DNA of 64,000 nt from Heterodontus francisci (taxonomy: Eukaryota), in the NCBI RefSeq assembly GCF_036365525.1, contig NC_090374.1:152832989-152896988 (forward strand), given 5' to 3'. Shown here piece by piece: positions 12,835 through 63,426 of this stretch; positions within the stretch are counted from its first letter, which is position 1; each line of letters begins with the position of its first letter. The notes under the pieces were generated by a model that saw only the letters and a program-made list of their open reading frames with translations, was not told the origin of the DNA and did not search any database. A program made the translations under genes and the position numbers.

Positions 12835-12891
12835 CCCCTGTGTATTTCACATTATTCAATGAGTCACTGAGCAGCCTTCCCTTTATATAAA
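12835..12891 (+). promoter_or_regulatory. Proximal promoter of SPINK gene A: broken E-box CCCCTG (12835), TC-like box TTTCACA (12845), AP-1 TGAGTCA (12860), TATATAAA (12884)
   Basis: Motifs read directly about 90-140 nt upstream of the ATG; aligns without gaps to the gene B promoter. Confidence 0.75.
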
Positions 12892-12977
12892 CCAGCTCAT
12901 TGTGTGCAGTGTAACACTAAGAGACAAGTGTCAATTCAAGAAGACAACTATTGACCCAGTGCTTCTGCTGCAGGAGA

Positions 12978-13032
12978 ATGAAACCATTCTCAGCTTTTAC
13001 TCTGCTCACCCTAATCTTCCTCTGCGCCATGG
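12978..13032 (+). CDS. SPINK: SPINK gene A exon 1 (signal peptide [18 protein letters not shown])
   Basis: ATG at 12978, hydrophobic leader, donor ATGG|gtaagt at 13033, upstream TATA; paralogous to 63245-63299. Confidence 0.9.
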
Positions 13033-16000
13033 GTAAGTTTCTCTTTATAGCACTGGATACAGTCAAAGAGTTTCATTTCTCCCAAGTTTTTTGGTTATCA
13101 GATTGTTTTCTGATTTTCTCCACTCCAAGACTTGAGTCTGTAATGCACACTAACACTTCAGTGCAGCCCTGAGGAAGGGCTGCAAGATGCCATTCTCCAG
13201 ATAAACCATTGAAACACAAGGTGCAGGCAGATAGATGGGTGACCGCGAGAAGGGGCAGGCAGTCAGTGCAGGAATCTCCTGTGGCTATCCCCCTCTCTAA
13301 CAAGTATATCGTTTTGGATACTGTTGGAGGCTTGGCCTATCAGGTGAAAACAACAGCAGCAGCCAGAGCAGTGGCACCACTGCTGGCTCTGTTGTTCAGC
13401 AGGGAGGGACAAAGCGCGGAAGAGCAATAGTTACAGGGGACTCTATAGTCAGGGGCACAGATAGGCACTTCTGTGGATGTGAAAGAGACTCCAGGATGGT
13501 ATGTTGCCTCCCTGGTGCCAGGGTCAAGGATGTCTCTGAACGGGCAGGGGGCATTTGAAGGGGGAGGGTGAACAGCCAGAGGTTGTGGTACACATTGGTA
13601 CTAACGACATAGGCAGGAAGCGTGACGAGGTCCTGCAGGGGGTGTTTAGGGAGTTAGGTAGTAAGTTAAGAGACAGGACCTCCAGGGTTGTAATCTCAGG
13701 GTTATTCCCTGTGCCACGTGTCAGTGAGGCTAGAAATAGGAAGATAGTGCAGCTAAACACGTGGCTGAACAGCTGGTGTAGAAGGGAGGGTTTCAGATAT
13801 CTGGATCATTGGGATCTCTTCCGGGACAGGTGGGACCTGTACAAGAAGGACGGGTTGCATCTAAACTGGTGGGGCACAAATATCCTGGCTGCGAGGTTTG
13901 CTAGCGTCACTCGGGAGGGTTTAAAATAGTGTGGTGGGGGGTGGGAACCAGAGCAATAGTCCAGCAGGTGAAATAACTGAGGGGGAACTAGTGAATAAGG
14001 CCAGTAAGACTGAGAGGAAGAGCAGGGAGGTAGATGTTGCTGAGCACAGTGGGACTGGTGGTCTGAAGTGCATTTGTTTCAATGCGAGAAGTATAACAGG
14101 TAAGGCAGATGAACTTAGAGCTTGGATTAGTACTTGGAACTATGATGTTGTTGCTATTACAGAGACCTGGTTGAGGGAAGGACAGGATTGGCAGCTAAAC
14201 GTTCCAGGATTTAGAAGCTTCAGGCGGGATAGAGGGGGATGTAAAAGGGGTGGGGGAGTTGCATTACTGGTAAAGGAGAATATCACAGCTGTACTGCAGG
14301 AGGACACCTCGGAGGGATCATGCAGCACGGCAATATGGGTAGAGCTCAGGAATAGGAAGGGTGCAGACACAACGTTGGGGGTTTACGACAGGTCTCCCCA
14401 CAGCCAGCGGGAGGTAGAGGAGCAGATATGTAGACAGATTTTGGAAAGATGTAAAACCCACAGGGTTGTTGTGGTGCGTGATTTTAACTTCCCCTATATT
14501 GACTGGGACTCACTTAGTGCGAGGGGCTTGGATGGGGCAGAATTTGTAAGGAGCATCCAGGAGGGCTTCTTGAAACAATATGTAGATAGTCCAACTAGGG
14601 ATGGGGCTGTACTGGACCTGGTATTGGGGAATGAGCCCGGCCAGGTGGTCAAAGTTTCAGTAGGGGAGCATTTCGGGAACAATGACCATAATTCCATAAG
14701 TTTTAAGGTACATGTGGATAAGGATAAGTCCAGGACTGGCATGTTCCTGTGAGGATGAAGGATAAGGTTGGCAAGTTTCGGGAACCTTGGATAACAAGGG
14801 AAATTGTGAGCCTAGTCAAAAAGAAAAAGGAAGCATTCGTAAGGGCTAGAAGGTGAGGAATAGACGAAGCCCTTGAGGAAAATAAAAACAGTAGGGAGGA
14901 ACTTAAGCAAGGAGTCAGGAGGGCTAAAAGGGGTCATAAAAAGTAATTGGCAAACAGGATTAAGGAGAATCCCAAGGCTTTTTATACGTATATAAAGAGC
15001 AAGAGGGTAACCAGGGAAAGGGTTGGCCCACTCAAGGACAGAGGAGGGAATCTATGTGTGGAGCCAGAGGAAATGGGCAAGCTACTAAATGAGTACTTTG
15101 CATCAGTATTCACCAAAGAGAAGGACTTGGTGGATGACAAGTCTCGGGAAGGGAGTGTAGATAGTCTGCGTCATGCCGATATCAAAAAGGAGGAGGTGTT
15201 GGGCGTCTTGAAAAACATTAAGGTAGATAAGTCCCCAGGGCCTGATGGGATCTACCCCAGAATACTGAGGGAGGCAAGGGTGGAAATTGTTGGGGCCTTG
15301 ACAGAAATCTTTGCATCCTCATTGGCTACAGGTGAGGTCCCAGAGGACTGGAGAACAGCCAATGTTGTTCCTTTGTTTAAGAAGGGTAGCAAGGATAATC
15401 CAGGAAATTACAGGCCGGTGAGCCTTACGTCAGTGGTAGGAAAATTATTAGAGAGGATTCTTCGGGACAGGATTTACTCCCATTTGGAAACAAACATATT
15501 AGCGAGAGGCAGCATGGTTTTGTGAAGGGGAGGTCGTGTCTCACTAACTTGATCGAGTTTTGTGAGGAAGTGATGAAGATGATTGATGAAGGAAGGGCAG
15601 TGGATGTTGTCTACATAGACTTCAGTAAAGCCTTTGACAAGGTCCCTCATGGCAGACTGATACAAAAGGTGAAGTCACACAGGATCAGAGATGAGCTGGC
15701 AAGATGGATACAGAACTGGCTCGGTCATAGAAGACAGAGGGTAGCAGTAGGAGGGTGCTTTTCTGAATGGAGGGATGTGACTAGTGGTGTTCTGCAGGGA
15801 TCAGTGCTGGACCTTTGCTGTTTGTAGTATATATAAATGTTTTGGACGAAAATGTAGCTGGTCTGATCAGTAAGTTTGCGGATGACACAAAGGTTGGTGG
15901 AGTTGCAGATAGTGATGAGGATTGTCAGAGGATACAGCAGGATATAGATCGGTTGGAGACTTGGGCGGAGAAATGGCAGATGGCGTTTAATCCAGACAAA

Positions 16001-19000
16001 TGTGAGGTAATGCATTTTGGAAGGTCTAATACAGGTGGGAAGTATACAGTAAATGGCAGAACCCTTAGGAGTATTGACAGGCAGAGAGATCTGGGCGTAC
16101 AGGTCTACAGATCACTAAAAGTGGCAACGCAGGTGGATAAGGTAGTCAAGAAGGCATACGGCATGCTTGTCTTCACCGGTCGGGGCATAGAGTATAAAAA
16201 TTGGCAAGTCATGCTATAGCTGTACAGAACCTTAGTTAGGCCACACTTGGAATATTGCGTACAATTCTGGTCGCCACACTACCAGAAGGACGTGGAGGCT
16301 TTGGAAAGGGTACAGAAAAGGTTTACCAGGATGTTGCCTAGTCTGGAGGGTATTAGCTATGAGGAGAAGTTGGATAAATTTGGATTGTTTTCACTGGAAC
16401 GACGGAGGTGGAGGGGCGACATGATAGAGGTTTACAAAGTTATGAGTGGCATGGACAGAGTGGATCGTCAGTAGCTTTTTCCCAGGGTAGAAGAGTCAGT
16501 TACTAAGGGACATAGGTTTAAGGTGCGAGGGGCAAAGTTTAGAGGGGATGTGCGAGGCAAGTATTTTACACAGAGGGTGGTGAGTGCCTGGATCTTGCTG
16601 TCGGGGGAGGTGGTGGAAGCAGGTACGATAGCAACGTTTAAGAGGCATCTTGACAAATACATGAATAGGAAGGGAATAGAGGGATACGGTCCCCGGAAGT
16701 GCAGAAGGTTTTAGTTTAGACAGGCATCAAGATCGGTGCAGGCTTGAAGGGCCAAATGGCCTGTTGCTGTGCTGTACTGTTCTTTGTTCTTTGAAACAAA
16801 GCCCTGGCTGCCTCTTCTGATGCTACATGTAGTCTAGGAAGGTCCAAAGATAAACAGAGCCAGGTGTTATCTTTGCATTCCAGGATGATCCTGGAGTAGT
16901 GAGCAGTTTCAACAGATGAGAGAAAGGCCCGATAGTGCTTTATGTGGTCCAGATAGATCTGGCGATGAGTGACTAGACTAGTGGTGCAGCAAATGCACTC
17001 AAATGCATTCATTTGAGGAAAAGATGTTTCACCCAGAGGGTGGTTGGAATATGGAATCTGAGGCAGGAACCCTCACAACATTTAAGAAGTATCCAGATGA
17101 GCACTTGAAATGCTATGGGCCAAGTGCTTGAAAATGGGATTAGAATAGCTAGGCTTGATGGCCGGCCCGGACACGGTGGGCCAAAGGGCCTGTTTTTGTG
17201 CTGCATAACTCTATGACTCTACGACTCTTTGACTCTAAGTCTGCGCCTCTTAGACTTAAGGGGTTGAAGGTGGGGACAGTACCAGGGAGAATGACCAGGG
17301 TGAGAGAGAATGTGTTTTACTGAGGACAAGGGGATCAAAGACAGAGCTGAGGGTATGATTGAGCAGATCGAAAGCTGCAGAAGTACTGTGGTGAAAAAAA
17401 CAGCCAAAGGTTAGATAACTGGCAATTTGAAGGAGGCAATGAGTGACTTAAGTGACAGCTTTTTCCAGGGGTTGATGCAGAAGGGAGAAATGAAAGGAGG
17501 CATTACTGGATAATAGGCAAGGAAGGACAAAGGAGAGAAGAGCTCAAGAAGATAAAGAGAAGAGAAAGGGTAAGGGAGATAGGAAGAATGAACTTTGGTA
17601 TACGTGGTAGCCAAAATGTGCATGTGAATGAACACAGGGAAAAGTAGGTTACAGAGGCATTGAAAAGATTAGGTTAGATATGTTCTGGTTGTAAATGAAT
17701 AACAGGCAGGAAACAATAGGAGAGTGTGTATAGTTAAAACCAGACGCCCTGTGGTGGGATGAAGTTAACATTGATATGATGGAGTCAGTTTGGAACACTG
17801 CCAAATTGATGATCAGGTTCGGAGACAGATGTGTAGGGCAAGTGAGTCTAGGAGCTGTTTCGGGGATACAGCACCTTTGGGCACACTGCTGGAGGTATTT
17901 CCTTGGAAAATGGTGAGTACAAGGTGTGAGCCAACGTAGTTTGATCCAGGAGTCCAACAGAGCTGAGTAGTGGTCTCAGTGAATAGTCATGCACACTAAC
18001 TGATGCAGTATACCAGTGGAGGGAATAACACAATCAGTGGCAATAGGAAGCAGATGGAAAGTAACATAGCAAAGGTCATTCAGCAACAGTGGAGCAGAAT
18101 CCAGGGTCAGATGGGAACCAGCAGAAACAGATCAGATTCCTGGCAAAGCAGCAAAATACTAAGGATGTAGCAGAAGACTACATATATAAGTTGAAACAAC
18201 AACTTGTATTTATATTGGATCTTAATATATAGATACTTTTCCCAAGGTGTTTCACAGAGGAATAACACAAAATGGAAGCTGTGAAGGATTGAGAGATGGA
18301 GAAGATGATCAAAATTTGGTCAGTCACTGGGTTTTAAGGAGGATTTTAAAGGAAGAATGGGAAATGAATAAGTGGATTTAGTGAACGTATTCCAGAGAAT
18401 GGGGCTTAGGTAGTTGATGACATGTCTATCAAGGTTGAGGCAAGTTGATAAGGGAAAATTCAAGAGGCTAGAGTCAGATGAATGGAGAATTCAGAGAGAC
18501 TGTAAGTGCTGGAGGAAGTTAAAGAGATTGGGATCAGAAGGGACAAGGTCATGAACGATTTAAACAGAGAGATGAAACCTTTAAATTTGAGGCATTGGGG
18601 GATTAGGAATCAACGTAAATTAGTGAGAGCAGGGGTGATGGGCAAGCGGAACTTGGTGTGGAATAACATATGGCAGCACTGTTTTAGATGAGCTGAAGTT
18701 TATGGATAGGCAGAAGATGGAGGTCTGGCATAGATCAAGTCTGGAGATGGAAGTAGGTCTTTCTGACAGTAGGGCTATTGGATTGGAAGCTCATCTCGGA
18801 GTCGAACAGGATGTTAATGTTGCAAATAGACTGGTTCAGTCTGAGGCAGTGGCCATGGAGAGGGATGTCAATTAAATGAAAGTAAGGGCTTCTGTTTTCC
18901 CAGTGCTTGTCGGGAGGAGGCGACAGCTCATCTCAGGCTGGATGTTGGACAAGCAGTCTGATAGCACAACAACAACAATTTGTATTTATATAGTCCCCTT

Positions 19001-22000
19001 AACCTAAGTAAATTGCTCAAGGTGCTTCACTGAGTGTTATAAGGTAAAATTTGACATAAGGAGATATTAGGGCAGATGATGACAAGCTTAGTCAACGAGA
19101 TAGATTTTAAGGAGCACCTTGAAGGAGGAAAGAGAAGTAGAGAGGCGGAGATGTTTAGGAAGGGAATTCCAGTGCTTAGGACCTGGGCAGTTGAAGGTAT
19201 GACCAATAGCGGTAGAGCAATTAAAATTGGGATGCTCAAAAGACCAGAATTGGATGAGCACAGATATCTCAGAGGGTTGTGCAGCTGGAGAAGATTGCAA
19301 AAGTAGGGAGAGGTGAAGCCATGGAGGGATTTAAAACAAGAATGAGTATTTTAAAAATCAAGGTATTACTTAACTTGGGTTTCCTCCGGGTGCTCCGGTT
19401 TCCTCCCACATGCCAAAGACTTGCAGGTTGATAGGTTAATTGGCCATTATAAATTGCCCCTAGTATAGGTAGGTGGTAGGGAAATATATAGGGACAGGTG
19501 GGGATGTGGTAGGAATATGGGATTAGTGTAGGATTAGTATAAATGGGTGGTTGATGGTCGGCACAGACTCGGTGGGCCGAAGGGCCTGTTTCAGTGCTGT
19601 ATCTCTAAACTAAACTAAACTTAACTGGAAGTCAGTGTAGGTCAACGAGCACAGGGACAACTGGTGAATGGAACTTGATGCAAGTTAGGACATGGGCAGC
19701 AGAGTTTTGGATGACCTCAAGTCAACGGAGGGTAGATTGTGGGAGCCTGCAAAGTAGCGCTTTGGAACAGTCAAGTCTGGAGGTAACAAAGGTGTGGATG
19801 AGGATTTCAGCAGCAGATGAGCAGAGGCAGGCGTGGAGTCGGGCGATGCTACTGAGGTGGAAATAGGCAGTCTTAATGATGGAGCAGCTATGTGGTCGGA
19901 AGATCATCTCAGGCTCAAATATGTCACCAAGATTGTGAGCAGTCTGGTTCAGCCCCAAACAGTTGCCAGAGAGAGGGACACAGCTTGTCACGTGTACTGA
20001 AGGCAATGGCTTCTGTCTTCCCAATATTTAATTGGAGGAAATATCTGCTCATACAGTGCCGCATGTTGGACAAGCAGTCTGACAATCTAAAGATAGTGGA
20101 CGTATCGAGAAAGGTGGGGATGAGATGGAGCTAGGTGCCATCAGTGTACATGTGGAAACTGATGCTCTGTTTTTGGATGCTGTCGCTAAGGGGAAGCATG
20201 TAGATGAGAAATAGGAGGAGCCAAGGATAGATCCTTGGGGGACACCAGAGGTAAGTGTACAGGAGCAGGAAGGGTGATTCTCTGGCTATGATTAGATAGA
20301 GAGGAATGGAACCAGGAGAGTGCGGTCACAGCCAGCTGGGCAGCAGAGAGGTGTTGGAGGAAGCTGGTGTGGTCATCTGTGTCAAAGACTGTAGACAGTC
20401 CAAAAAGGACGAGGAGGGATAGTTTACCTTTGTTGCAGTCACATAGGCTGTCATTTGTGACTCATATAACAACTGGTTCTGTACAGTGGTGCAGCAGAAA
20501 CTGTGTTACGACCGGGTGAGGAAGGGGTCTCAGGCTTCCCTCTCGCCCCTCTCTTGGTTTGGCCGTAACAGGGTTTAACTTTTAAAACACAGTGTTTTTA
20601 GCTTCACCTCAGTGAGTCCTTGCTCACTGCTTTCTAATTGTAATTGTAAATAAACCAATCAGACAGGCTTTCTTAGGTTTAAACAAGAAAGATGTAAGTT
20701 TATTAGCATTAACACTCTAACTCAGTTAAAATTACTAAAAATACATGACGCAACCACGCAAGCATGCATACAAGATAAACACCCACACAAATAGATACAG
20801 AGGAGGAGGAAGAATTAAAGGGGGAGGGTTTTGGAGCAGTTGATGGAATTCAGTTACTGTCTTTGGTTTGGATGTAAAGTCCTTGATTAGAGTTATGTCT
20901 TGCAGTTCTCACTGGGGCCCAATGCACACTTTCAAACTTGTTTTGCTGGTACCAGAAGGCTGAAGATGTCCTCTGTCTTGAGGCTTAAGCTGCTTCCGTG
21001 GGTCCCTGGTACCTTTTGAGAGAGAGGGAGAGAGCTTCCTTCTCTTTAGTCTTCAAATAGTGAGCAGTTTTGGCAGATGAGAGAGGGACTTCACAGAGTT
21101 TATGTTCTCCAGCCAGATCTGGCAGTGAATGGCTAGACCAGTTGCCATTTCTATTCATTCTGCATCCCTTGGACCTAAGGGAGTGGAGTTGAGGGCCATA
21201 CTGGAAGAACGTCCAGGGTGAGAGAATGGGGACTAAGACATCAAAGGTAGAGGTGAGGGTGTGGTTCAGCAGATCCTTAGCTGCAGAAATGTCACGGCGG
21301 CTAGAGGGCCAAAGACCAGACAGTTTGGATTTTGAGGGCTGAATTTAATGCAGCTGTTAAAAGAGGGAATGATGGCGTGGGGATGGGGGGTGGGGGATGG
21401 AGAATCACATGACGAAACAGTCCACCCGAAAATCTGGTGTTGTGACGTCAGTTCTGAATTAAGTCAAAGGTGGGAAAGCACCAAGGTGGTATTGCTGCCC
21501 CGAGGTGATGAGAATCACATTTAAATTGCGAGCGGGCAGCACCCGTGCCTTCAGGTTTATGGCCTTTAAAAGCTGGTGGCACCAAGTCAAGAAGCTTCAG
21601 TGCCACAACGGGGAGGCAGCCATGAACTGTGCTGCATAGGGGAAGAGGAGGTTGCAGAGGACATTGTTGGATTGTGTGTTCTGCAAGGTGTGTGGGGGTC
21701 TTGGGGTCCCTGACGGGGTTCTGAGCCTCGATTGATTTAAAAAGGGGGATCTAGGTTTGGGTGGTTGTACTGGGTGACTAAACTGTTGTGTGAGATGTTT
21801 GGTCGCCCATACTGCTGGATGAGAGGGTCAGCTATCAGCAAAGGTGGGTACTGAGGGCCTTGGAGAAGTTGCAAAAGCTCAGTTGGCAGGACAGGGTCCT
21901 CTCTGCATCGACAGCGGTCTGAAGGCCTACTGTCTTATGCACCTGCTTCAGGATGAGTTGCGACCTATGGGATTTCAGGGTCGCCCTATACCCATCGCCC

Positions 22001-25000
22001 TCAAGATCACAGTGGCAGTGAACTTTTACACGTCTGGATCTTTTCAAGGATCCATAGCGGACATGTGTGGAGTCTCACAGGCAGTAGCCCACTGCTGCAT
22101 CAAGGAGGTGACCAGTGGCCTATTCAAGAGGACCGGCAACTATGTGCACTAACTGACCGACCCTGACAGTCAGGCCGAGAGGGCCATTGGATTCAGGGTC
22201 ATCACTGGATTTCCCTGGGTGCAAGGTCTGATAGACTGCATGCCATCAAGGCTCCCACGGACCAGCTAACCACCTTCATCACCAGGAAGGACTTCCATTC
22301 AATCAACGTTCAACTGGTCTGCGACCACTGATAGTGTTTCCTGCTGCTTTTCTGCTTTTCCTGAAGTAGCCATGACAACCACATACTTCAACAGCCGCAG
22401 GTGCCATAGCTTTTCAGGTTCCCCATTCGCCCTCAGGGATGAATTCTCAGGGACAAGGACTACCCATTGAAGACATGGCTACTCACGCCTGTGAGGAACC
22501 CTCGCACTGTAGCAGAGGAGAAGTACAACACTTGCCATGGCACCACCTGAGTGACCATTGGACTGTTGAAGATGAGATTCCACTGCCTCAATCGATCAGG
22601 TGGAGTCCAGCATATTGTGGTGGTCTGCTGTGCTCTGCACAATCTAGCACTGCAGTGGGGAGAGGCCTTACGTAACAATGAGATGCTTACCAATAAAGAG
22701 GATGCAGAGGAGGGAAAGAATGAAGCACCCCTGGATGTTGAAGCTCTCGCAGTCGAGGCCAGGCAGATTGAGCGACATGCCAAGGAGGCAAGAGATAATC
22801 TTAGAATCACCTGCTTCCAGCCACCCTGATGCCCACAAAGAAACCAATAAAGTCTCACCCCAATGCATATGTACTGTCGCCTTCTTTCCATTTGGGTTCC
22901 CTGACTTGCATTCAGCTGAAAACCACTCTAGGGCCCATGGGAGTTCAAATGTTAATGAGGGCTGTGGTTACATTGACATTCCACTAAGGGGGAAGGGTGA
23001 AGTCAGCAGCTCACAATGAAGGCATGATAGAATAATGACTGTTACACATTGATCATTAATTACGTGAGAAAAAGAACTTCATATTAATCATTACATTTCA
23101 GATGGCAAACACCCACCCGTAACTCCCCAAGTGTGGCTAGGATAGTTTTCTTACTGTGTTTGCAAGTGCTCCTACAAGGTGTGATCTGGGCTGGAGGCAG
23201 GTTGCTGATCAGGCTGCCCCTTGGCCTGTGATGACTTCGGCAGCCGTCCTCTAGCTGACTGAGGCCTGGAAGGCCCCGGCTGCCTGAGGCTTTCCTGCAC
23301 TGGTTCAGGACTCTCCTCAGGCGTCACAGCTGCTGGAGCTGGGCTCACTGGCGGAGGGGCAGAGGAGCCGCTGTCCACACTTACAGTGACCTGAGGGGAG
23401 CTCTTGGATGTGGAGGCCAGCCTCTCCTCCTCCCTTTCAAGGCTCGCTTGAACCTCCATGCTGACCAGAGAAGGATGTGGAGCGGGAGATGACTCCAGGC
23501 GCCTTGTCCTTTTGCCTTGCCACTGCTGCATCGAGTTCATAGCCAAGGCAATGGTGTGCAGGTCTGCGTGCATCTGTGGCATCTGGCTCTCCATGAGGAC
23601 CACAAATCTATTAATGGAGGAAGCCATGCGCTCACATGCCTGGGACATGGCAACAGTCATGGCATGGATGGACTCCTCACTTGTCTGCTCTGGCATCTCT
23701 GCTAGATGTTCCCTTACTTCTCTCTACCATTCCAGCATGCCCTGTGCTGTCAACACCAGAGACTCGTCATCAGTCTGGGTCTCAGCATGGGCCTGGCCAC
23801 CCACAGTCCTCCGACTGTCAGAGACCTCAGCTGTCTCAGCCTCAGCCAGCTGCTCGGGCGTGTGTGTGGTGCTCTCACCAGCTTGTGACCTTGATTCTAC
23901 AGCCAAGTGGAAATCCACCAAGGTGAAAGTATCTGTGCTGGTGGAAGGTGCAGGAGAATCATGGGATGGTGCTTCCTCTGACTGCTGATCCTCCTCGGAG
24001 GTGGAATTCTACCCCGCCCCTTCCTGTGGAATCTCCTATGGATGGCAACATACATGAGAGAACACAAACATGTGTGGGTTAGGATTAACAGATCTCGTCA
24101 TGCCAACCACGCATGATGGGAGTCTCCAGAAGTGAACTGTATGTCGATGGAAGTGAATCCTCATGCTCTTGCGCGGAGACTCCAGTCTCACCATCCGCTA
24201 TGGAGCAGCCGCCCTGTGTTCCCACCAGCTCTAGTGCCTCCTGCTTAGCCATGGAGAGAGGCCTGATGTCTGGCATCACTCTGCCAGTCTGTAATGTCTC
24301 CCTCCTGTTGTAGGCTGTCTTGTCTTGGAAGTGGAAAGAGGGAGATAGTCATACCTTGCAAAGAGATCAACATGACTGCTCTGCTAGTGGCAGCCTCTCG
24401 TCCCCTACTGTGTTTCCTATGGAACTCATCCACCCGTCAGCTCTCAGGGGAGTTAATAGGGATGAACTGTGGCCTGTGGCCGAGATGCATCTGTGCATCT
24501 GTCAGGATGAGGTGATGCTTAACCCTGTTTGCCTGTGCTTTTGTGTTGTCTCCCTCCCCATGTCCTGCTTCCTCCCACATAACCACAAGCAATCCCTAAA
24601 AAGGAGAGGGACAGGTAAGGAGCAACCACCTTGGCAGAACGAAAGTTTTCGTTGACCCTCTTGCGGCACTGAACCCATGTGCGGGTGTTGACACTACAGC
24701 TGCTGACCTTCTCAGCGATACTGTCCAGGCTTGCTTGGTCAGGAAGGATGACCTCTTCTTGTCATCGCTGGCGAAGATGACCTCCCGCTGTTCCCTTGCA
24801 GCCTGGGGGAGAATTTTGAAGGAGGCATCGCCAAACCGTGGAGTCACCTGGTGTCTTCCTTCTGCCATGGTCACTGCAGGCTTGGGTCCTGGTTGACTAT
24901 CAGGCAGCAGAAGGGGTCCTGGAACAGCAAACACACACTGTGGACACTCTTTTACAGCAGGTAGGAGTGAATTCAGGGCTGGCAGGCCTTTAAATACGGC

Positions 25001-28000
25001 ACCCGCAACTGCTCTGTGGTCATTTTTAAAAATTATTCATTCATGGGATGAGAGCGTCGCTGGCCAGGCCAACATTTATTGCCCATCCCTAATTGCCCTT
25101 GAGAAGGTGGTGGTGAGCTGCCTTCTTGAACCACTGCAGTCTATGTGGGGTAGGTACACCCACAGTGCTGTTAGGAAGGGAGATCCAGGATTTTGACCCA
25201 GCGACAGTGAAGGAACGGCGATATAGTTCCAAGTCAGGATGGTGTGTGACTTGGAGGGGAACTTGCAGGTGGTGGTGTTCCCATGCATCTGCTGCCCTTG
25301 TCCTTCTAATTGGTAGAGGTCGTGGGTTTGGAAGGTGCTATGTAAGGAACCTTGGTGCATTGCTGCAGTGCATCTTGTTGATGGTACACACTGCTGCCAC
25401 TGTGCATCAGTGGTGGAGGGAGTGAATGTTCATGGATGGGGTGTCAATCACGTGGGCTGCTTTGTCCTGGATAGTGTCGAGCTTCTTGAGTGTTGTTGGA
25501 GCTGCCCCATCCAGGCAAGTATTCCATCACACTCCTGACATGTGCCTTGTAGATGGTGGACAGGCTTTGGGGAGTTAGGAGATGAGTTACTCGCCACAGG
25601 ATTCCTAGCCTCTGACCTGCTCTTGTAGCCACGGTATTTATATGTTTACTGCAGTTCAGTTTCTGGTCAATGGTATCCCTTAGGATGTTGATAGTGGGGG
25701 ATTCAGCGATGGTAAAGCCATTGAATGTCAAGGGGAGATGGTTAGATTCTCTCTTGTTGGAGATAGTCATTGCCTGGCACTTGTGTGGCACGAATGTTAC
25801 TTGCCACTTATCAGCCCAAGCCTGGATATTGTCCAAGTCTTGCTGCACTTCTACATGGACTGCTTCAGTATCTGAGGAGTTGCAAATGGTGCTGAACATT
25901 GTGCAATCATCAGCGAACATCCCCACTTCTGACCTTATGATTGAAGGAAGGTCATTGATGATGCAGCTGAAGATGGTTGGGCCTAGGACACTACCCTGAG
26001 GAACTCCTGCAGTGATATCCTGGAGCTCAGATGATTGACCTCCAACAACCACAACCATCTTCTTTTGTGCGAGGTATGACTCCAACCAGTGGAGAGTTTT
26101 CCCCCTGGTTCCCATTGACTTCGGTTTTGCTCGGGCTCCTCGATGCCATCTCGGTCAAATACTGCTTTGATGTCAAGGGCAGTCACTCTCACATCACCTC
26201 TTGAGTTTAGCTCTTTTGTCCATGTTTGAACCAAGGCTGTAATGAGGTCAGGAGCTAAGTGGCCCTGGCAGAACCCAAACTGAGCATCACTGAGCAGGTT
26301 ATTGCTAAGCAAGTGCCGCTTGATGGCACTGTTGATGACACCTTACATCAATTTACTGATGATTGAGAGTAGGCTGATGGGGCAGTAATTGGCCGGGTTG
26401 GACTTGTCCTGCTTTTTGTGTACAGGACATACCTGGGCAATTTTCCACATTGCAGGGTAGATGCCAGTGTTGTAGCTGTACTGGAACAGCTTGGCTAGGG
26501 GTGCGGCAAGTTCTGGAGCACAGGATTTCAGTACTATTGCCGGAATATTGTCAGCGCCCATAGCTTTTGCAGTATCCAGTGCCTTCGGTTGTTTCTTGAT
26601 ATCACGTGGAGTGAATCGAATTGGCTGAAGTCTGGCATCTGTGATGCTGGGAAGTTCAGGAGGAGGCCGAGATGGATCATCAACTCGGCACTTCTGGCTG
26701 AAGATTGTTGCAAATGCTTTAGTCTTATCTTTTGCACTGATGTGCTGTGCTCCCCCATCATTGAGGATGGGGATATTTATGGAGCCAACTCCTCCAGTTA
26801 GTTGTTTAATTGTCCACCACCATTCACGGCTGGATGTGGCAGAACTGCAGAGCTTAGATCTGATCCGTTGGTTATGGGATCGCTTAGCTCTGTCTAGTGC
26901 ATGCTGCTTACGCAGTTTGACACGCAGATAGTCCTGTGTTGTAGCTTCACCAGGTTGACACCTCATTTTGAGGTATGCCTGGTGTTGCTCCTGGCATGCC
27001 CTCCTGCACTCTTCATTGAATCAGGGTTGGTCTCCTGAGTGGTTCCAGCATTTCTTGTTTTTATTTCAGATTTCCAGCATCCGCAGTATTTTGCTTTTAT
27101 TTTGGTCTCCTGGCTTGATGGGTAATGGGAGAATGGGGGATATGCCAGGCCATGAGGTTACAGATTGTGGTTGAGTACATCTGACGCCATACCTGGCCTC
27201 TTGCCTCCCACCCCACCATGTGATTGTGGAGGTGGGGGGAAGCCCCTCGTCTCCAGTATGTGAAATGGCCGCCCGCCGCATGTTCACGGTGGGACGGGCA
27301 TCCATGTCACAAATAAAAACAAGGGCGGCACAGTGGCGCAGTGGTTAGCACCGCAGCCTCACAGCTCCAGGGACCCGGGTTCGATTCCGGGTACCGCCTA
27401 TGTGGAGTTTGCAAGTTCTCCCTGTGTCTGCGTGGGTTTTCTCCGGGTGCTCCGGTTTTCTCCCACAAGCCAAAAGACTTGCAGGTTGATAGGTAAATTG
27501 GCCATTATAAATTGTCACTAGTATAGGTAGGTGGTAGGGAAATATAGGGACAGGTGGGGATGTTTGGTAGGAATATGGGATTAGTGTAGGATTAGTATAA
27601 ATGGGTGGTTGATGTTCGGCACAGACTTGGTGGGCCGAAGAGCCTGTTTCAGTGCTGTATCTCTAATCTAATCTAATCTAATTGGAAACGGCACCTGTTT
27701 CCAGTCCCACCGTCGGAACTAAATTCATCCCTGGAAGTGCAGTTGTAAGTGAATCGGAAGGCAGTGGAGGGTTCGAGTGATGTAGTAGAGTGCTAGAGTT
27801 GGATGTCATCAGTATACATGTGGAAGCTGTCCCCATGTTTTCATATGATGTTGCTAAGGAACAACATTTAAACAAATAAGTTGTATGGTGTCTCCATTCA
27901 AGAGGGAATTATACAAACAACTTAAATGTTCAGATATTGATTGCTGTAATTCCAAAACTTGAGTTAGCCAGAAATTTGCTCTTTGATTGAATTCCTGGTG

Positions 28001-47010: not shown

Positions 47011-47041
47011 TGGTGGAAGCAATAGGCTCATGACTGCATCT

Positions 47042-49338: not shown

Positions 49339-49690
49339 ATAAGAGTGGTAGGAAACAGCAGAGTTTGAAAGCATTGGGCATGAATGTAACCATTTACAAA
49401 TAACATCAAAAAACATTTCTCAGATGAGCATCTTTAGCTGCCTTCCCCATAGAGTTAATCAATGCAAAATTAATGACTTTGAAAGAAAGGCGATGGAAGT
49501 TTTAGATAGGCTTGAAGACCTTAAAAGAAATATATCCTCAGGGATAAATGACATTTACCCTAGAGAACTGAGGGAGACTAATTGGGAGATTTGTGAAGCA
49601 TTGGCACTCATTGCCTGGGAGCCATTAGACTCTGGGAGATACCAATAAACTGGAAATAAGCTCATTTGGTTTTCATATTTAAAGAGGTGG

Positions 49691-54487: not shown

Positions 54488-54533
54488 CTAACATTGTCCA
54501 AACTTTTGGATCAGGATATTCTTCTTGGTTGCC
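54488..54533 (-). CDS. SPINK: SPINK gene B exon 4 coding part ([15 protein letters not shown])
   Basis: Acceptor ctattccag; 46 nt; sixth Cys followed by TAG; homologous to gene A exon 4. Confidence 0.93.
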
Positions 54534-57500
54534 CTGGAATAGCAGCAAAGCATCAGTAAAATCAGTCTAAAAATGAAGACAACTGTTTCCAATGCACAAT
54601 GTTGGAGTATTCAGCCATGTCACAGGTTGACTGCTAGCTTTTGGAGTACTCCTGCAGCTCTTGCTTATTTTACTCTGCTCTAGTAGCTATAAAAAGCAAT
54701 GGGGTTTATTTCATTTTTATCGCCAGATTAAAAAAGGAGTGGTAGGGAGTAGGCCACTCATTTTACATCTTGTCCAATTTCCTTTTCAACTCATTGAAGA
54801 TGTGTACCATGGACTTCGGATTTGCTATCAACCATTTTTCACGCCACCCTATGTTAATAGGGTGAAGTATGGTGTGAGGAGGCTCATGTGGAGCAGAAAC
54901 ACTGGCATGGACCTGTTGGCCTGTTTCTGTGCTGTAAATAATATGTAATACAATGTTTACAACAGTTTGTAAACAATCACTCAAGGAAGGGGATCACCAC
55001 CACCTGCTCAGGGCAATTTGGGATTGGTAATAAAAGTAGTCTTGCCCATATCACAGGAACAATTTTTAAAAAGTGCTGTTTGTGGGAGCTTGTTTTACAT
55101 AATTTGGCTGCTGAGTTTGCTGACTGCTCATCAAAAGTAACCTTGGTTATGAAGAACCTTATGATATTATGGTGAAGAGGTGCTATATAAATGCAAATTT
55201 CTAACTTTCTTCAACAAAGTAATACTTTACATCAAAGTTGCTTCACCCTCACTTCCTCACTAACTGCTGACCACCCAACTTCCCTTTCTGGCTCTTATGA
55301 TAGATATAAATGATTCCCTCTCCTCCGAACTGTTTCCTCCGTTTCAAATTTGCTGTCACACTTTCCTAAATAAAAACACCCATGACTCCTCTGTCCTTGT
55401 AAAATACCACCCCATCTCCAAACTCCCTTTCCTCTCCAAAATCCTCGAACACGTTGTCACCTCCCAATCTGTCCCGAACTTTCCTGCAACTTCATGTTTG
55501 AACCTTTCAAATCAGGTTTCTGTCCTGCCACAGCACTGAAATGGCCTTTATCAAAATCACAAATGACATTCTTTATGACTGTAATCATAGTGAACTATCC
55601 ATTCTCATTCTTCTCAGCCCGTCTGCAGCCTTTCACAAGGTTGGTCATACTATCCTCCTCCATTGCTTCTCCTCCTTTGTCCAGCTGGGTGAGACGGCTC
55701 ACACCTCATTCCATTCTTATTTATCCAGTTGTAGCCAGAGAATCTGTTGCAATGGTTTCTTATCTCACTCACACAGTCTTACCTCTGTAGTCCCCAAGGA
55801 TCTTGGCCCCCTTTTCGTCCTTATCTGCATGCGGCCCCTTGGCAACATCATCCGAAAACACATCAAATTCCATATTATACGCTGACTACACGAAGCACTA
55901 CACGAAGCGCTACCTCACCACTACCTCTTTCAATCACACCCACTGCCTTTGATTTGTTATGCTGCTTGTCTGACATCCAATATTTTATGAGCAGATATTC
56001 TCTTCAATTAAATATTTGGAAGACTGAAGCCTCGATCTTCAGTGCCTGCCTCAAACTCCATCCCCCTCTAAGCCACTGTCTGATGCCAGCCCAAACTGCT
56101 CACAATTTGACCCCGAGATGAGCTTCTGACCCCTTATTGGCTCCATCACCAAGAGCACCTACTTCCGCCTCATAATATCGTCTGTCTACTCTATCCCAGC
56201 CAATCTGCTGCTGAAACATTCACTCATGCTTTTGTTACCTCCAGACTTGACTATTCCAATGCTCTCCTGACTGGTCTCATCTTCCACCCTTTGTAAATTT
56301 GAACTTATCCAAAACTCCGCTGCCCATATCCTAATTTGCCCCAAGTCTCATTCACCCATCAGCCCTGTGTTCGCTGACCCATATTGGCTCCAAATCCAGC
56401 TTTAAATTTATAATTCTCATCCTTATTTTCAAATCCCTGCATTCCCTCACCACTTCCTACCTCCATAACCTCCTCCTCTCCTGCAACCCTCTGAGAATTC
56501 TGTGTTCCTGCAATTCTGGTGTCTTGTGCATCTCCAATTTGTATCGCTCTATTGGCTGCTGTGCTTTCAGTTGTCTAAGCCCTAAGCTTAGGAATTCCCT
56601 CCCTATGCCTCTCCACCTCTCTGCATGTTTCCTCCTTAAGATGCTCCTTAAAACCTCTCTTTGAAGTCTCAATATCTTGTTACGTGGTTCAGTGTTAAAT
56701 TCTGTCAAATAACACTTCTGTAAAGCATCTTGGAACACTTTACTATATTAAAGAAGCTATATAAATGTAAGTTTTTGTTTTCCTTTCCCATTTAACATTC
56801 ATTAAAGGAAAAGTCTTTGAAATGCATTTGAGATCCAGTGGATGGACACTTGTAAAAGCATGACTTGTTAAATTGTAAATCACCAAGTAATAAGGAAAAG
56901 GAAACCATATTTAACTATCCTGCTGCAGTTCTGCTGTTAGCTTCCACAGTCCCTACATTGAAGTGCCAGACAAAATTATGTAATTAAATGGGTCCCTGAA
57001 CCCACTACTTTCTGATTTAGAGGCAAGATTATGATCAACTGAACTATGCTGTCACTTTTATAGATTATCTTCAGTTTTATTCACAACTGAGTTTTGTACA
57101 TGACAACTAACCTTGTGCCACACAGCTGCTCAATCCACAGCTATTGAAAGGTGCATATATTGTATTTTTTAAACATTCAGATATTTGAACAAGCTTTGCT
57201 TGGAATGATCAGAATACCTGATTAAGTAAATACTACAGAGAGTATAAGACTGTGGTCTTAGAGGTGCAATACATTAAGAATAATGTAAGAAATAAATAAT
57301 TTCACAGCTTATCCTCCAATTTGCTTGTGCTGATAACAATGTTCCCATTTTGCAATACATCAAATCATTCCAGGGCACCATGTGTTTTTTTTTCTGAAGA
57401 AGCACAAAGAATGTGGCTTACCAGTTTTGTACACACAGTAAGCATTCGTTGCCATACGTTCTCCCATCAGTTCCACAGACTGGATTGTATTCCATGGTAC

Positions 57501-60500
57501 ACATTTCAGTCATCTCTCCTGAACATCTTGCCTAGAACATCAAACATAATTAATTCTGCATATTGAATACTTTGACATTAAAAATGTTCTAAAATGAACA
57601 GTAAATACAGGTGCTGTGGAAGGGAGGGAGGGAGATGCCGGTGCTGTGGAAGAGAGAGTGATTTTTCAGTCATACTTGTTTGGAATCTAAATCACAAAGT
57701 GAAAATAGATGCATTCCAAGAAACAAATGCTTTAAAGTTCAAGATAAAGTATACATTTCCTACCTCTATTGGAACGCCAGTGTTTGCAGCTGCAAATATC
57801 AACATGGCAGAAAGAAAAATTGTTACTGCACAGGTTAATAACATAACATAAAATCAACAGATTTTGTCTGTAGCTGTGTATGAATGATGATCCTGTGTTA
57901 TGATATTCCAAAACAATATTTAGAAAACTTGTGTTACAATGTTATACCAAATCGCTTAAACAATTAACTTTCTCCCACTTTGTGTTATTTCTTCTTGTTC
58001 ACTATCAAGCCAGGAGGCAGTTCCATCATTCTGTGACCAACTGCTTTGATGTAGAGAGAGCATTTGAGGGTTGACTCTCCATTTTCTCCCTTTCTCCAAA
58101 TGGTGAAAGCTTCACCCTGTTGGTTGGTGCCCCGAGTGAGGAATCATGTGTCTTTGGACCCCTTGCTATAGACATTACTGCCAACTGGATATTATGGAAA
58201 TACCTCACACCAAATATTTCCCAAAAGCCACAGGACTTTTCCTACGTATTTAGCAATGCTATGCTCTTACTTGGAAAGCAGTTTTAGTGGACATATCTCT
58301 TTGCCACCAATAGCATAATCCTCATGTAATCAAGCATTGGCCATTGATGTCTACAGAGTTGAGATGAATGCAATATGATAAAAAGAGTGATTGAGTAAAA
58401 AGAGTGATTGAGTTTGGCAGTAGAAATCTATAAACACACAATATAATTTCTTGAACTCATTCATGGATTAGCAATATGACAAACTTGCCCATCACAGAGA
58501 TTGCATACTTTAATCTCTAATATCTTCCCTCTCCACCCCATCTCAGCCGATATACTGCTGAAACCTTCATCATGCCTTTGTCACCTGCACACTTGACTAT
58601 TCAGCCTTCTATCCTGCACCTTCCATAAATTTGAGGTCACCCAAAACCGGACTGCTACCCTATCCTGCAATTGGCCTGTTACATCCATTGCCCTTGTGCA
58701 CATTGGCCTACATTGGCTTCTGGTCCACTCATGCTTAAATTTTACATTTTCATTATGTTCAATTGCCTCCATAGCCTCTCTCCTCCCTATCTCTGTAACC
58801 TCCTGTCCTACAACCATCTAAAAATTGTGTTCCTCCAACTCTGGCATCCGATGCATCCCCTACTCCCTTTGCCCCATCTGCGGTGGCTGTGCCTTCAGAT
58901 GTCTGGACACTTAGCTCTGGAATTCCCTCCTTAAACCTACCCACCTCTATCCTGTTCTTTAAGACCCTCCTTAAAACCTACCTCTGATCAAGCTTCTAAT
59001 CATCCCTTGTAATATTTCTCCTTTTTTCTAGGTGTCAAATTTTGTCTGATTAAGCTTCTGTGAAGCTCCTTGGGATATTTCCTTATGCTAAAGGTACTGC
59101 ATAAATGCAAATGATTATTGTTCTATGATCTGGAACTGACCCTTCCTCCATTGGGAATGAGTTCAGTTTCCAGACCGTGTTGGACTCAGGGCCAAAGATG
59201 TTTCTGATCCTCAGTATTGGATGCACAAAAATGTGTCAGCGATTTACATTCAGACTTTTATTGGTTGAAAAACTAGCCTTTAAAATCAATGAAAGCCCAT
59301 TTTTGGAAAGGTGCTTTCATATTCAAGGTAGAGAGTGCAGCACTGAGGAACAATAAAATAGATAAGCAAAAGATTGCAGGGCTAGTTTTAAACTCAAGAA
59401 AGGATTAAAATAGATCATGAGGACAAATGTTGGAAATAGAGCAGTAAATCTGAAGTAGTAAGTTGGAGATAAGGAATAACAGGAAAAGCAGAATTCAAAT
59501 GTTTAATTTTTTTATTTGATTAAATCTGCTTGCTCACTGGAAGTTAAGTGGCCCTAGGCCTAAGCTGATTCCACACTACAGGTGACCTGCTCCTCAAAAC
59601 AACCTGGCAAATTCAATTCCTAACAGTCATCGATCTTTGACTCCAAAAAAACAAAAGTTAAAGTCAAGGTTTTGCAAATAAAATGGCTGAACTTTGATAA
59701 GAAATTGTGTACTGTTACCTGCATACTAAAATAGGATAAGGTTTACAATGGCAACAGTCCAACCAAATCCAGAAGGCATTTGAAAATTTTTCACACAAAG
59801 TGCTAGAAGATCAAAGCTGCGGGGGTTCAATGTAAATCTTGGCTGTGTACTTGTTAGAGGAGTTACATCAGGCTGTAATGAGATACTGAGCGTAGGTGTA
59901 GTTCAGTGGTAGCAGTCTTGCCTCTATTTATTTAGAGATACAGCACTGAAACAGGCCCTTCAGTCCACCGAGTCTGTGCTGACCAACAACCAGCCAATTA
60001 TACAAATCCTACATTAACCCCATATTTTCTACCACATCCCCACCATTCTCCTACCACCTATCTACACTAGGGGCAATTTACAATGGCCAATTTACCTATC
60101 AACCTGCAAGTCTTTGGCTGTGGGAGGAAACCGGAGCACCCAGCAGAAACCCACGTAGACACAGGGAGAACTTGCAAACTCCGCACAGGCAGTACCCAGA
60201 ACTAAACCCAGGTCGCTGGAGCTGTGAGGCTGCGGTGCTAACCACTGCGCCACTGTGCCACCCTGAGTTAGAAAGTTGTGGGTTCAAGTTCCAGTCCAAA
60301 GACTTGAGCATATAATTCATGCGAACACTTCAGTGTGGTCTCAGAATGTCCCAAAGCACCTTGTAGTTAAGTATTTTGAAGTGTGGCCATTGTTGCAATC
60401 TAGAAAATGCAGCAGCCAATTTGTACACCAGCATTCTACAAATAGCAATGAAATAAAGGACAAGCTAATCTGTTTTTAGGTGCTGGTTGCTGGATTAATA

Positions 60501-63299
60501 TTGTTCAGGACACTATAGAACTCCCTGCTCTTCCTCAAATAGCATTGAGGTAATTTTAACATCCACTTTGTAGCATTGTGCTATGTTTTTAAGTCTTCAT
60601 TGAATGATGACTGCAGGCTTTATATACAGATTCAACACAAACACTATTTATTGTCTTACTTATATACATTGCATGAACTCAGGTCCAGATCTTCTCCTTG
60701 CTAGAATGTGTGTGTCCTTTCTAAGCCATGTGTTGAGTGTGTCTCTCAAAATGGTCTCTCCTTTTCTATGCCGGATGATGTCATCAAGTGCATGGTGGCC
60801 TGGTTTCTTAAAGGTGAAATCACCATTACACATTTGAGAGGGGAGGTGGGGTCTCAGCTGAACAACTCATCTGAAAGACAGCACCTCAGCGCTGACAAGT
60901 GTCAGCCAAGATTATGTGGTCAAGTCTCTTGAGTGGGACTTGAACCTGACTCAGAAACAAGAGTTGCGGCCACTGAAACATGATTGTTTAAATTTGCTAA
61001 TTCACTCACCAGGGATCAGCAGACAATGACTTGTAAAACAAACTTTGAAATTTGACAATAAATTGAGCACTGCAGGTGGTGTACGAAAAATAGGGCCACA
61101 TTTATAACGGCAATAACCCAACCCTTGGACTGTAACCTGAGTTTGGTTCTGGCAGTCTGGAGTTTGCACCTTATTGTTGAGTATTGCTGATCAAAGGAGA
61201 TAAAAAGCTACAGGAAAATAACCTTTAAAAATAAAATCATGAAAATAAGTAAGGCTGATACTAAAAGAGAAATTAAAATAAAAAGGAGAGAAACAATGGC
61301 ATAAAAGCAAAACATAACAAGGGAAAAAAAGGCTAGAGAAAAAGCACAAATTAAGAAAAACATGAAAAGAAACTTTAACATCCTGTAAACCTAAGGTAGA
61401 AGTGAAAGAAACAGGATTAGGAATAACACAAAGCAGCAATGGCTTGTTTTCAAAGTTTAACAGAGAAATATGTGTCATCATTTGCTTCTATCTTTCAATA
61501 ATGCATGATGGCAATCACACAGAAAACAGAATTCTAATGGCAGACTCTGGGAGGAAGGAATGCTCTTCCTTCACATAAAACACTGACTATCAATTAAAGG
61601 ATAAAGTATTAAGGGCAGTGGTCCATGACCAGGTCTCAACTCAACATCATGCAAATGCTTGGGCCTGTAAATTCAAGCAAAGGTTATAGTCCCTAAGCTT
61701 GAATAATGAAGGTCCTGATATTGGGCCTCAGGCCTCAATACAATAGAGATGGAATCAAAAATGAAGAACAGATTGCTGCTGGCATCACTGTGGCCCTCAG
61801 GTAAGTGAGAAAGGCTGGATGATCAGGCCTTGGGGTGGGGACCAGGGGGCTGGTAGCAGTGGTCAGGGGAGAGGCAATCAGTGTCTGGCAGGGGAGCTGC
61901 CTGCATTCTTGTAATGTGGGGTTGGGAGGTGCACTCCTGCACTTCTCAGCTCTAGATTCTGTTAAGTATGAGGCCTTCTTGGCAATTACTGCGACATTAT
62001 ACTTTGAGTTCAGCGTGTTGTGAGTAATGCGTTGGAGCATGGCAAAGATTGAAAATGGGTCCTGCAAGTGGCGCAGGACCCTAATTTAAGTAACATATTC
62101 TGTTGTTAGCATAATCAGGATGCACACTCCTGACGTCAACACATCTACCTTACACCCACATGGTGGGCGATGCACTTCTGGCTCATAATGAGTATGCACT
62201 TCCTATGTGCCATATTGGAAGGTTAGGAGGCCTGAAAAACCAGGCACTGCGTGGCTGAATTTCTGGGCCTTGATGTATTATAGGGAGCTGAAGGAAGGGA
62301 CACGTTGCTTTCCTTCAATATCTAATTTTAGTTTAGAGATACAGCACTGAAACAGGCCCTTCGGCCCACCGAGTCTGTGCCGACCATCAACCACCCATTT
62401 ATACTAATCCTACACTAATCCCATATTCCTATCACATCCCCACCTGTCCCTATATATTTCCCTACCACCTACCTATACTAGGGGCAATTTATAATGGCCA
62501 ATTAACCTATCAACCTGCAAGTCTTTGGCATGTGGGAGGAAACCGGAGCACCCAGAGGAAACCCACGCAGACACAGGGAGAACTTGCAAACTCCGCACAG
62601 GCAGTACCCAGAATCAAACCCGGGTCCCTGGAGCTGTGAGGCTGCGGTGCTAACCACTGCGCCACTGTCCACTATCCTAAACCAAAAATTATCAAGACTG
62701 CAGCTGGGAAATGCCTATACTCTTGCAAGACTGCATTTTGGAACTAGCCTCATTTGGAGCATACCCTTGAATATGGGGATGATGTGAAACTGCTGTATAA
62801 CACTGTTGAGAACTCTTTAATAAATATACTGGAGTGACATCCCTCCTTGGAGTGGGGTGCAGTGGGTGTTTAGGAAAGATTAACATGATTCCCAAGACTT
62901 TCACTTCAGTTGGAGCCAGTTGCCATTCAGGCTGGGAATCTGACACTTCACCAACCATCAGGACATGAAATGCAGGAGTAACATCACAAATACATTTTTA
63001 AAAATTGCACATGTTGATGAAGTTGCTATATAGAACAACCAGAGCAAATCATTTCCCATTGTCACTTCAAGTCTGAAGCAATTCCAGATCAAAAAGTATA
63101 AAGCACCAACAGAATGCATTGACTCCAGATCATTAGTAGCGCAGCTACTATTAAACTCAGCAAACAAAATGGCAATAAATAAAAACTGGCAACAGGAGAA
63201 ATTAAAGTCCATGACCATAAACAGTGGTATTAAGAGGAACTTACCCATGGCAAAGGATAAGAACATGGAGAGAAGAGCAAAAGCTAAGAATAGTTTCAT
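54488..63299 (-). CDS. SPINK: Kazal-type serine protease inhibitor, gene B (SPINK family); complement(join(54488..54533,57422..57531,57764..57789,63245..63299)), 78 aa: [78 protein letters not shown]
   Basis: Four GT-AG exons (55/26/110/46 nt) on the minus strand splice in frame; signal peptide and six Kazal Cys; clear paralog of gene A. Confidence 0.94.
55240..56780 (+). mobile_element. L2 LINE, degenerate (intron 3 of gene B)
   Basis: [39 protein letters not shown]; tail gctatataaatgtaag. Confidence 0.85.
57422..57531 (-). CDS. SPINK: SPINK gene B exon 3 (Kazal core)
   Basis: Acceptor tgttctag, encodes [36 protein letters not shown], donor TG|gtaagc. Confidence 0.95.
57764..57789 (-). CDS. 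SPINK: SPINK gene B exon 2 (AANTGVPIE)
   Basis: Acceptor atttgcag, donor GAG|gtagga; 26 nt; preserves the reading frame. Confidence 0.85.
58530..59120 (+). mobile_element. L2 LINE 3' fragment
   Basis: gctgaaaccttcatcatgcctttgtcacc...ataaatgcaaatgattattgtt. Confidence 0.75.
59927..60263 (-). mobile_element. Full-length HE1/V-SINE inserted in the tRNA head of a DeuSINE
   Basis: Reverse-complement of 27323-27682; flanks gtggtagcagtcttgcctct | gagttagaaagttgtgggttcaag rejoin a DeuSINE head. Confidence 0.88.
61662..62269. mobile_element. Harbinger-type MITE
   Basis: Imperfect TIRs GGCCTGTAAATTCA / TGAATTTCTGGGCC, with TTG on both flanks. Confidence 0.45.
62327..62668 (-). mobile_element. HE1/V-SINE
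   Basis: Near-identical reverse-complement of 19376-19620 plus a tRNA head. Confidence 0.92.
63245..63299 (-). CDS. SPINK: SPINK gene B exon 1 (signal peptide [18 protein letters not shown])
   Basis: ATG at 63299, donor ATGG|gtaagt; 55 nt. Confidence 0.92.
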
Positions 63300-63370
63300 T
63301 CTTCGACAGCAGAAGCGTTTGTTCAGTACTCTGCAGTCGTCTCCTCGTATTGACACTTGTCTCGTGATGG

Positions 63371-63426
63371 TGATATAAAGGGAAGGCCACTCAATGACGC
63401 ACTGAGCAATGTGAAACACCCAGCTG
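63371..63426 (-). promoter_or_regulatory. Proximal promoter of SPINK gene B: E-box CAGCTG + N4 + TTTCACA (PTF1-like bipartite site), AP-1/CRE-like TGCGTCA, TATA variant TATATCA
   Basis: Minus strand reads CAGCTG ggtg TTTCACA ttgctcag TGCGTCA ttgagtggccttccctt TATATCA; aligns with 12835-12891. Confidence 0.7.

Follow-up and report, generated by a model that had tools for sequence, protein, structure and literature searches.

Target specificity among Kazal inhibitors follows rules tied to the P1 residue, and several other families of secreted peptides, the defensins, cathelicidins and WAP/trappin proteins among them, have leader exons that are alike and mature parts that have diverged. Kazal inhibitors act by the standard mechanism, and mammalian SPINK1 homologues carry Lys (62/79) or Arg (17/79) at P1 (PMC9850914 for both points). 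The exons of human SPINK1 end at c.55, c.87 and c.194 (PMC3190254), and mammalian SPINK4, or PEC-60, occupies the locus B4GALT1-SPINK4-BAG1-CHMP5-NFX1 (PMC7766421). Here we describe two SPINK genes, A and B, in a 64,000-nucleotide stretch of the Heterodontus francisci genome (NC_090374.1, positions 152,832,989 to 152,896,988; hereafter the window, to which unprefixed coordinates refer). A 464-kb neighbourhood yielded six intact four-exon SPINK genes, which run Z(-) A(+) B(-) C(-) D(+) E(-); they form a 200-kb cluster of mixed orientation that also holds F(+), an orphan copy of promoter and exon 1. We consider it probable that A and B are intact single-domain members of an old six-gene cluster, predicted to be secreted inhibitors of differing targets, and that the 5' block they share with their neighbours has been kept alike by recurrent gene conversion.

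The locus resembles human SPINK1 in its four exons, its 55-nt exon 1, its 1/0/2 intron phases and, as judged from the gene B model, its fold, but differs at P1, which is Lys or Arg there, Gln in A and Met in B. As regards SPINK4, PEC-60 is the best single-domain sequence match in the Protein Data Bank (PDB) for exon 3 of A, and a B4GALT gene lies ~2 Mb from the cluster on the same chromosome. Neither A nor B groups with SPINK4 in our protein tree. Lower-bound searches found no BAG or Snf7 match near the cluster, and 33 of the 35 candidate exons up to 200 kb away on either side were scanned without any flanking gene being recognised. Firm orthology to a named SPINK gene did not emerge from these comparisons of gene neighbourhood. 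The combination of an alike 5' part with a diverged active part recalls the defensins, cathelicidins and WAP/trappin proteins, but A, C and D have active parts that are old and conserved, not hypervariable, and ~480 bp of promoter belong to the block that is alike. A literature search by titles and abstract openings, with most subscription journals outside its reach, found no study of this cluster or pattern.

Structure and predicted products of genes A and B

The Kazal cores were located by a six-frame motif scan (+28337 for A, -57483 for B), and the other exons were placed by splice-site searches together with a shared motif in the 3' untranslated region (UTR), which occurs exactly twice in the window (+36964 and -54465), in agreement with the homology claimed for this region in a preliminary description of the sequence. 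Gene A, on the plus strand, comprises the 55-nt coding part of exon 1 (12978..13032; predicted signal peptide, phase-1 donor), a 26-nt exon 2 (28165..28190; the best-scoring 26-nt AG..GT candidate, with a peptide that agrees with protein P0002), a 122-nt exon 3 (28277..28398; Cys I-V, P2-P1-P1' Asp-Gln-Asn, PF00050 E 1.9e-11) and the 46-nt coding part of exon 4 (36895..36940; Cys VI and stop), separated by introns of 15132, 86 and 8496 nt, with an open frame for an 82-aa product. Gene B, on the minus strand, comprises the corresponding coding part of exon 1 (63245..63299; 55 nt, predicted signal peptide), exon 2 (57764..57789; 26 nt), exon 3 (57422..57531; 110 nt, Cys I-V, Thr-Met-Glu, PF00050 E 1.5e-13) and the coding part of exon 4 (54488..54533; 46 nt, its 3' UTR extending leftwards), with introns of 5455, 232 and 2888 nt and an open frame for 78 aa. 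In both genes the introns, six in all, have GT-AG ends and phases 1/0/2, and each product has six cysteines. The anatomy first described, two converging four-exon genes on opposite strands with the same phases and equal coding lengths for exons 1, 2 and 4 (55/26/46 nt), was reconstructed exactly, and the check proposed with the Kazal hidden Markov model gave 44.2 and 50.9 bits for the exon-3 translations of A and B against a PF00050 cut-off of 21. The genes do converge, as the term tail-to-tail had implied, but their stops lie 17.5 kb apart; 3' antisense overlap was looked for and none was seen, the longest gene B contig passing 53800 and being able to reach only ~52850.

All three gene B introns are spliced out in public contigs, which come from four runs of one sample in one study, the run type being guessed. 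Both joints flanking exon 3, one omitting 232 nt towards exon 2 (CT..AC) and one omitting 2888 nt towards exon 4 (CT..AC), are present in the contigs of 4/4 runs, and a contig of run X2 has a loose end past exon 2 that equals B exon 1 at 30/30 letters, compared with 18-24/30 for exon 1 of the other paralogues. Depths at the B joints (~10,000, 439, 4 and 8) hint at tissue-restricted expression and were not used as evidence, since contigs cannot give expression levels. Gene B is already annotated: its spliced product matches P0008, the NCBI 'SPINK1-like' protein of H. francisci, at 78/78 residues. An AlphaFold model built on a 39-row alignment (pLDDT 80.7 overall, >90 across residues 41-78) contains the Kazal fold, a helix plus a small sheet, and a leader helix at residues 3-17; the top Foldseek matches are human SPINK1 structures 7qe8 and 7qe9 (E 6e-5 to 2e-4, rmsd 1.6-1.8).

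The splice check from RNA suggested earlier thus bears on B, whose three junctions are found in contigs, while the exon model of A is predicted from splice signals and orthologues, which indicate an intact gene. Its product is identical to the 82-aa P0001 of Heptranchias at 63/82 residues and to P0002 of Pristiophorus at 60/82, and its Kazal part is matched by P0003, a partial protein of the ray Pristis. We assign these three, named as ovomucoid-like or SPINK1-like proteins and falling in one starred clade of the protein tree, as orthologues of gene A; their cores are 78-88% identical to that of A and carry Gln, Asn and Gln, respectively, at P1, but their leaders are unlike that of A in a lineage-specific way, the annotated N-terminus of P0003 being unrelated. 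The earlier view of A and B as intact and old SPINK paralogues agrees with the ray orthologue of A. A multi-domain, ovomucoid-like form of A was considered and discarded: the single longer shark match, P0122, has one Kazal domain and a different N-terminus.

The cysteine spacings, 9/7/10/2/17 in A and 7/7/10/2/17 in B, are those of classical Kazal domains, and both products are predicted to be single-domain SPINK proteins of the classical Kazal type (MEROPS I1). The exon-1 peptides form a hydrophobic leader of 18-20 residues, by way of which both would be secreted. The loop after Cys II would enter the S1 pocket of the target protease and inhibit it by the standard mechanism; with Met at P1, B may act on chymotrypsin-, elastase- or subtilisin-like enzymes, A with Gln on an enzyme other than trypsin, and the neighbours D (Lys) and Z (Arg) are putative trypsin-type inhibitors.

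A 5' module shared across the cluster

Homology between A and B had been reported to extend into the promoter, 5' UTR and start of intron 1, and two alignments bear this out: 12838-13117 against 63423-63153 (68.7% over 294 columns, E 9e-27) and 12612-12731 against 63816-63697 (75% over 122 columns). The module to which these segments belong extends from ~-480 to +200 around the ATG. In A it lies at 12509..13112 (+) and includes a promoter with the TATA-like TATATAAA at 12884-12891, the 5' UTR, exon 1 and the start of intron 1, and as a module it is shared with paralogues B to F; in B, at 63096..63863 (-), it forms two blocks (~-564..-398 and -124..+203) separated by B-specific insertions. A dispersed repeat can be ruled out, as a genome-wide DNA search with the module returned 7 matches, all confined to this cluster. 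The sequence TGAGTCA, which we take to be an AP-1-type motif, occurs just upstream of the TATA-like box at 12860-12866 and likewise in C and D, and is changed in B and E.

Among A to E the 5' block is 65-81% identical, versus 52-62% for exons 3-4 plus UTR, and A and C reach 93-95% identity at -368..-185. In all 10 pairs the proportion of synonymous differences (pS) is 0.09-0.40 in exon 1 versus 0.55-0.91 in the Kazal core, and four-fold sites differ at 10/57 in exon 1 versus 43/90 in the core, counts that pool non-independent pairs. The likeness is not confined to coding sequence: intron 1 can be aligned over its first 120 nt in 10/10 pairs (z 5.5-16.3), and the corresponding ranges are z 0.1-4.6 for intron 2 and -1.1 to 2.3 for the first 120 nt of intron 3. 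By these measures the 5' block looks far younger than the Kazal exons do.

Leaders and Kazal cores across sharks and rays

The same contrast was followed at the peptide level in 18 A, C, D and E proteins from nine species of sharks and rays, with leaders of 18 residues; the set omits P0020 (aberrant C-terminus), P0027 (a second isoform), the P0003 leader, the B-like and Callorhinchus rows (of doubtful orthology) and the later-found P0129-P0137. The leaders cluster according to lineage, the Kazal domains according to paralogue. The nearest neighbour belongs to the same paralogue for 18/18 cores and for 3/18 leaders (12 have another paralogue as nearest neighbour and 3 are tied). Leaders of different paralogues within a species differ by 0.27, versus 0.43 for one paralogue across lineages, and the corresponding values for cores are 0.47 and 0.19. 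Stratified permutations of the leaders gave p 0.0002 for an effect of lineage and p 0.26 for an effect of paralogue (0.0004 and 0.44 with one of each identical pair removed, 16 rows), and none of 1000 size-matched 18-column core subsets mimicked the leader pattern.

Phylogeny and selection

The protein tree was built from 65 rows over 57 columns and drew on 59 of the 123 proteins then stored, picked by name. Its starred clades are those of A (99/91), C (100/99) and D (99/99), together with E and a lone SPINK gene on C12. Because the A, C and D clades each contain rays as well as sharks, these paralogues predate the split between the two lineages, more than 250 million years ago. The deep branches are weak; the trees do not unite A and B, and a sister relation of the two is neither supported nor rejected.

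The suggestion that both genes are under purifying selection agrees with the conserved core of A. It fits B less well: its nearest relatives are identical at 41-43/78 residues (52-55%), with Arg, Gln or Glu as their P1 residue, which hints that B evolves fast, if these relatives are its orthologues. Between A and B we estimate dN 0.47 and dS 1.28, a ratio of ~0.37 (bootstrap 0.16-0.74; 1881/2000 replicates finite) that lumps together a putatively converted exon 1 and the old exons. In catshark and smooth-hound the B-like genes have expanded (P0022, P0033, P0101, P0021, P0127, P0128 and P0017), and their P1 varies by copy between Arg, Glu and Gln, in contrast to A, C, D and E, whose P1 is stable.

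Alternative explanations

While the anatomy given in the preliminary description is correct, its interpretation is supported in part. It held that a single old inverted duplication had produced A and B, the shared promoter and UTR being relics of that event. Three observations favour such an origin: a 26-nt exon 2 is confined to A and B among the six cluster genes, the two have in common the 3' UTR motif and residues at the exon 3/4 joint, and a clade uniting them is not rejected by the approximately unbiased (AU) test (p 0.196). The remaining equalities lose their value as a signature of the pair, since they recur across the cluster (55-nt exon 1 in 5/6 genes, 46-nt exon 4 in 5/6, identical phases in 6/6) and human SPINK1 has the same exon 1 length and phases; exon 2 apart, equal lengths thus mark the family as a whole. 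A and B are, moreover, two of six genes and not each other's evident partners. Their proteins share 37/78 aligned residues; their 5' blocks, at an identity of 0.654 over 555 ungapped columns, are the least similar of the 10 pairs (A-C 0.805, C-E 0.813); their exons 3-4 plus UTR stand at 0.571 (A-C 0.608, A-D 0.619); and few informative sites unite them, 2 in the 3' part and 3 in the 5' part. The same module also precedes C, D, E and F, and it is far less diverged than exons 3-4. We therefore regard a single inverted duplication as an unlikely account of the resemblance; the likeness of the A and B promoters and UTRs does not date the duplication, because later conversion across the cluster explains it better.

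Signal peptides and proximal promoters are often under constraint, and a history with no conversion, in which strong purifying selection on shared regulation and secretion preserved promoter, leader and intron 1 start as the Kazal exons diverged, would be in keeping with the conserved TATA-like and upstream motifs of the modules and with the leaders of galeomorph D proteins, which track paralogy. Constraint of this kind predicts, however, that orthologues be closer than paralogues, the opposite of the leader distances above, and it does not account for the closeness of synonymous sites in exon 1 and of 120 nt of intron 1; we think it improbable as the whole explanation. Least probable to us is that the lineage signal stems from swapping or sharing of first exons, through inversions between opposed modules or through one exon 1 spliced to several Kazal cassettes. 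The six module copies do point both ways, and one is an orphan that lacks downstream Kazal exons; moreover, the leaders of A and C are identical in Pristiophorus, as are those of C and E in S. canicula. But each intact gene from A to E has its own exon 1 here, exon 2 of B joins the exon 1 of B and not that of another paralogue, the S. canicula annotation treats C and E as distinct proteins with no common isoform series, and the signal persists when one of each identical pair is removed.

The simplest explanation of these sequence patterns, and a likely one, is that the block of promoter and exon 1 has undergone recurrent conversion. Neighbouring genes of the cluster would exchange the block in tracts of ~600 bp, between inverted copies, and the homogenised modules would give A to E similar regulation, with the Kazal exons meanwhile keeping their diverged, paralogue-specific inhibitor parts. 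Several points weigh against this reading. Species-matched quartets of exon 1 group by species in 8/12 cases and by paralogue in 4/12, all 4 involving D, and galeomorph D leaders follow their own paralogue; the quartets and pairs are not independent. The leader comparison concerns 18-residue peptides from automatic annotations, and as P0003, P0122, P0129 and P0131 are annotated with wrong or alternative first exons, leaders may be misassigned or splice-shared. RNA support covers gene B alone, from the single sample and study of guessed run type, and the orthology of B is weakly placed, its union with its nearest look-alikes not being rejected by the AU test (p 0.40). Strong purifying selection on the promoter could also explain part of the within-genome contrast.

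Neighbouring SPINK genes

Genome searches revealed additional Kazal exons to either side of the window. All six cluster genes have 1/0/2 phases and the spacing C-x7/9-C-x7-C-x10-C-x2-C-x17-C, with P1 residues Arg (Z), Gln (A), Met (B), Thr (C), Lys (D) and Leu (E). Gene Z, on the minus strand, is head-to-head with A, the start codons ~4.7 kb apart. Its predicted exons 1 and 2 (7863..8312; exon 1 8312-8276, 37 nt, and exon 2 7912-7863, 50 nt) were chosen from splice signals and reading only, and its exons 3 and 4 lie just left of the window at C4:152829414-152829305 (PF00050 E 6e-12) and 152825104-152825059. Z is without the shared 5' module, and its best relative among the stored proteins matches at 33/80 residues. 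The intact SPINK genes C(-), D(+) and E(-) occupy C4:152926829-153000796 (L030-L037); D is extended at its C-terminus by 7 residues, and the P1' residue of E is Pro, which is unusual for an inhibitor loop. The promoter-exon 1 copy F (C4:153021468-153021835, plus strand, L039) has lost its TATA-like box, is shifted in frame and has an altered donor, and no Kazal exon was found behind it across the next 75 kb.

The annotated protein of gene D, P0131, begins with a different N-terminus from that encoded by the genomic 55-nt exon 1 (C4:152947876), and was likely annotated with a wrong first exon, because the genomic one better fits the orthologues P0010 and P0005. Among the protein matches listed (in one case the best 120 of 993) there was no H. 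francisci entry for A, C, E or Z. Elsewhere in the genome, a second cluster at C44:26755602-26855306 contains five single-exon-type Kazal matches in both orientations, and a lone, strongly conserved SPINK (P0065, P1 Arg) lies at C12:55162900-55167200 (L069-L070), on a chromosome that also has a JAKMIP gene. JAKMIP matches were found on C1, C12 and C20 and not on C4; the C12 SPINK is a candidate counterpart of the SPINK1-region genes.

Transposable elements in the introns

The genes had been described as buried in ~50 kb of transposable elements. As a lower bound, 51% of the interval 12835-63426 has matches in other parts of the 464-kb neighbourhood, and domains of long interspersed nuclear elements (LINEs) are present: a broken LINE in intron 1 of A (13540..16219, +) contains Pfam Lipase_GDSL_2 (an esterase-like ORF1), Exo_endo_phos and RVT_1, and is followed by purine-rich sequence that by composition continues to ~21 kb. 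A GC-rich insert in the same intron (21299..25019, no strand assigned), single-copy in the 464 kb, has a DDE_Tnp_4 match (E 9e-4) below the cut-off and is likely a decayed DNA transposon, presumably of the PIF/Harbinger family to judge from its open reading frames.

A 99% match between the first introns of A and B consists of two copies of a 239-nt repeat, at 19376-19614 and 62327-62565, which has 21 BLAST matches in the 464 kb, the other copies being 97% identical or less. Insertion before a duplication can be ruled out for this repeat, with its many copies and no flanking homology around those in the two introns; the pair represents recent insertions or further conversion between the first introns. 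Because the repeats shared by A and B are without flanking homology or sit in different introns, transposable elements would have entered the two genes independently, as had been proposed.

Significance

The genes themselves are ordinary members of a well-known family of small secreted protease inhibitors, and their 5' blocks have likely evolved in concert. The analysis adds SPINK genes A, C, E and Z, all four of which seem to lack annotation, along with an improved exon 1 for D, and it traces back to cartilaginous fish two features of human SPINK1, the 55-nt length of exon 1 and the 1/0/2 phases. The cluster would provide a clean natural case of regulatory homogenisation beside coding divergence on a small scale, and a warning that likeness of promoters and leaders cannot date or pair such duplicates. 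It also predicts that inhibitors whose P1 is Gln, Met, Thr, Lys or Leu are expressed together. More speculatively, and in our view doubtfully, the locus may have been modular in sharks and rays for over 250 million years, one module of promoter and signal peptide, present in inverted copies, being repeatedly made uniform and occasionally exchanged among fixed Kazal cassettes that differ in specificity; if so, the whole anti-protease panel would be switched on as one unit, and cassettes would change their regulation with their target unchanged.

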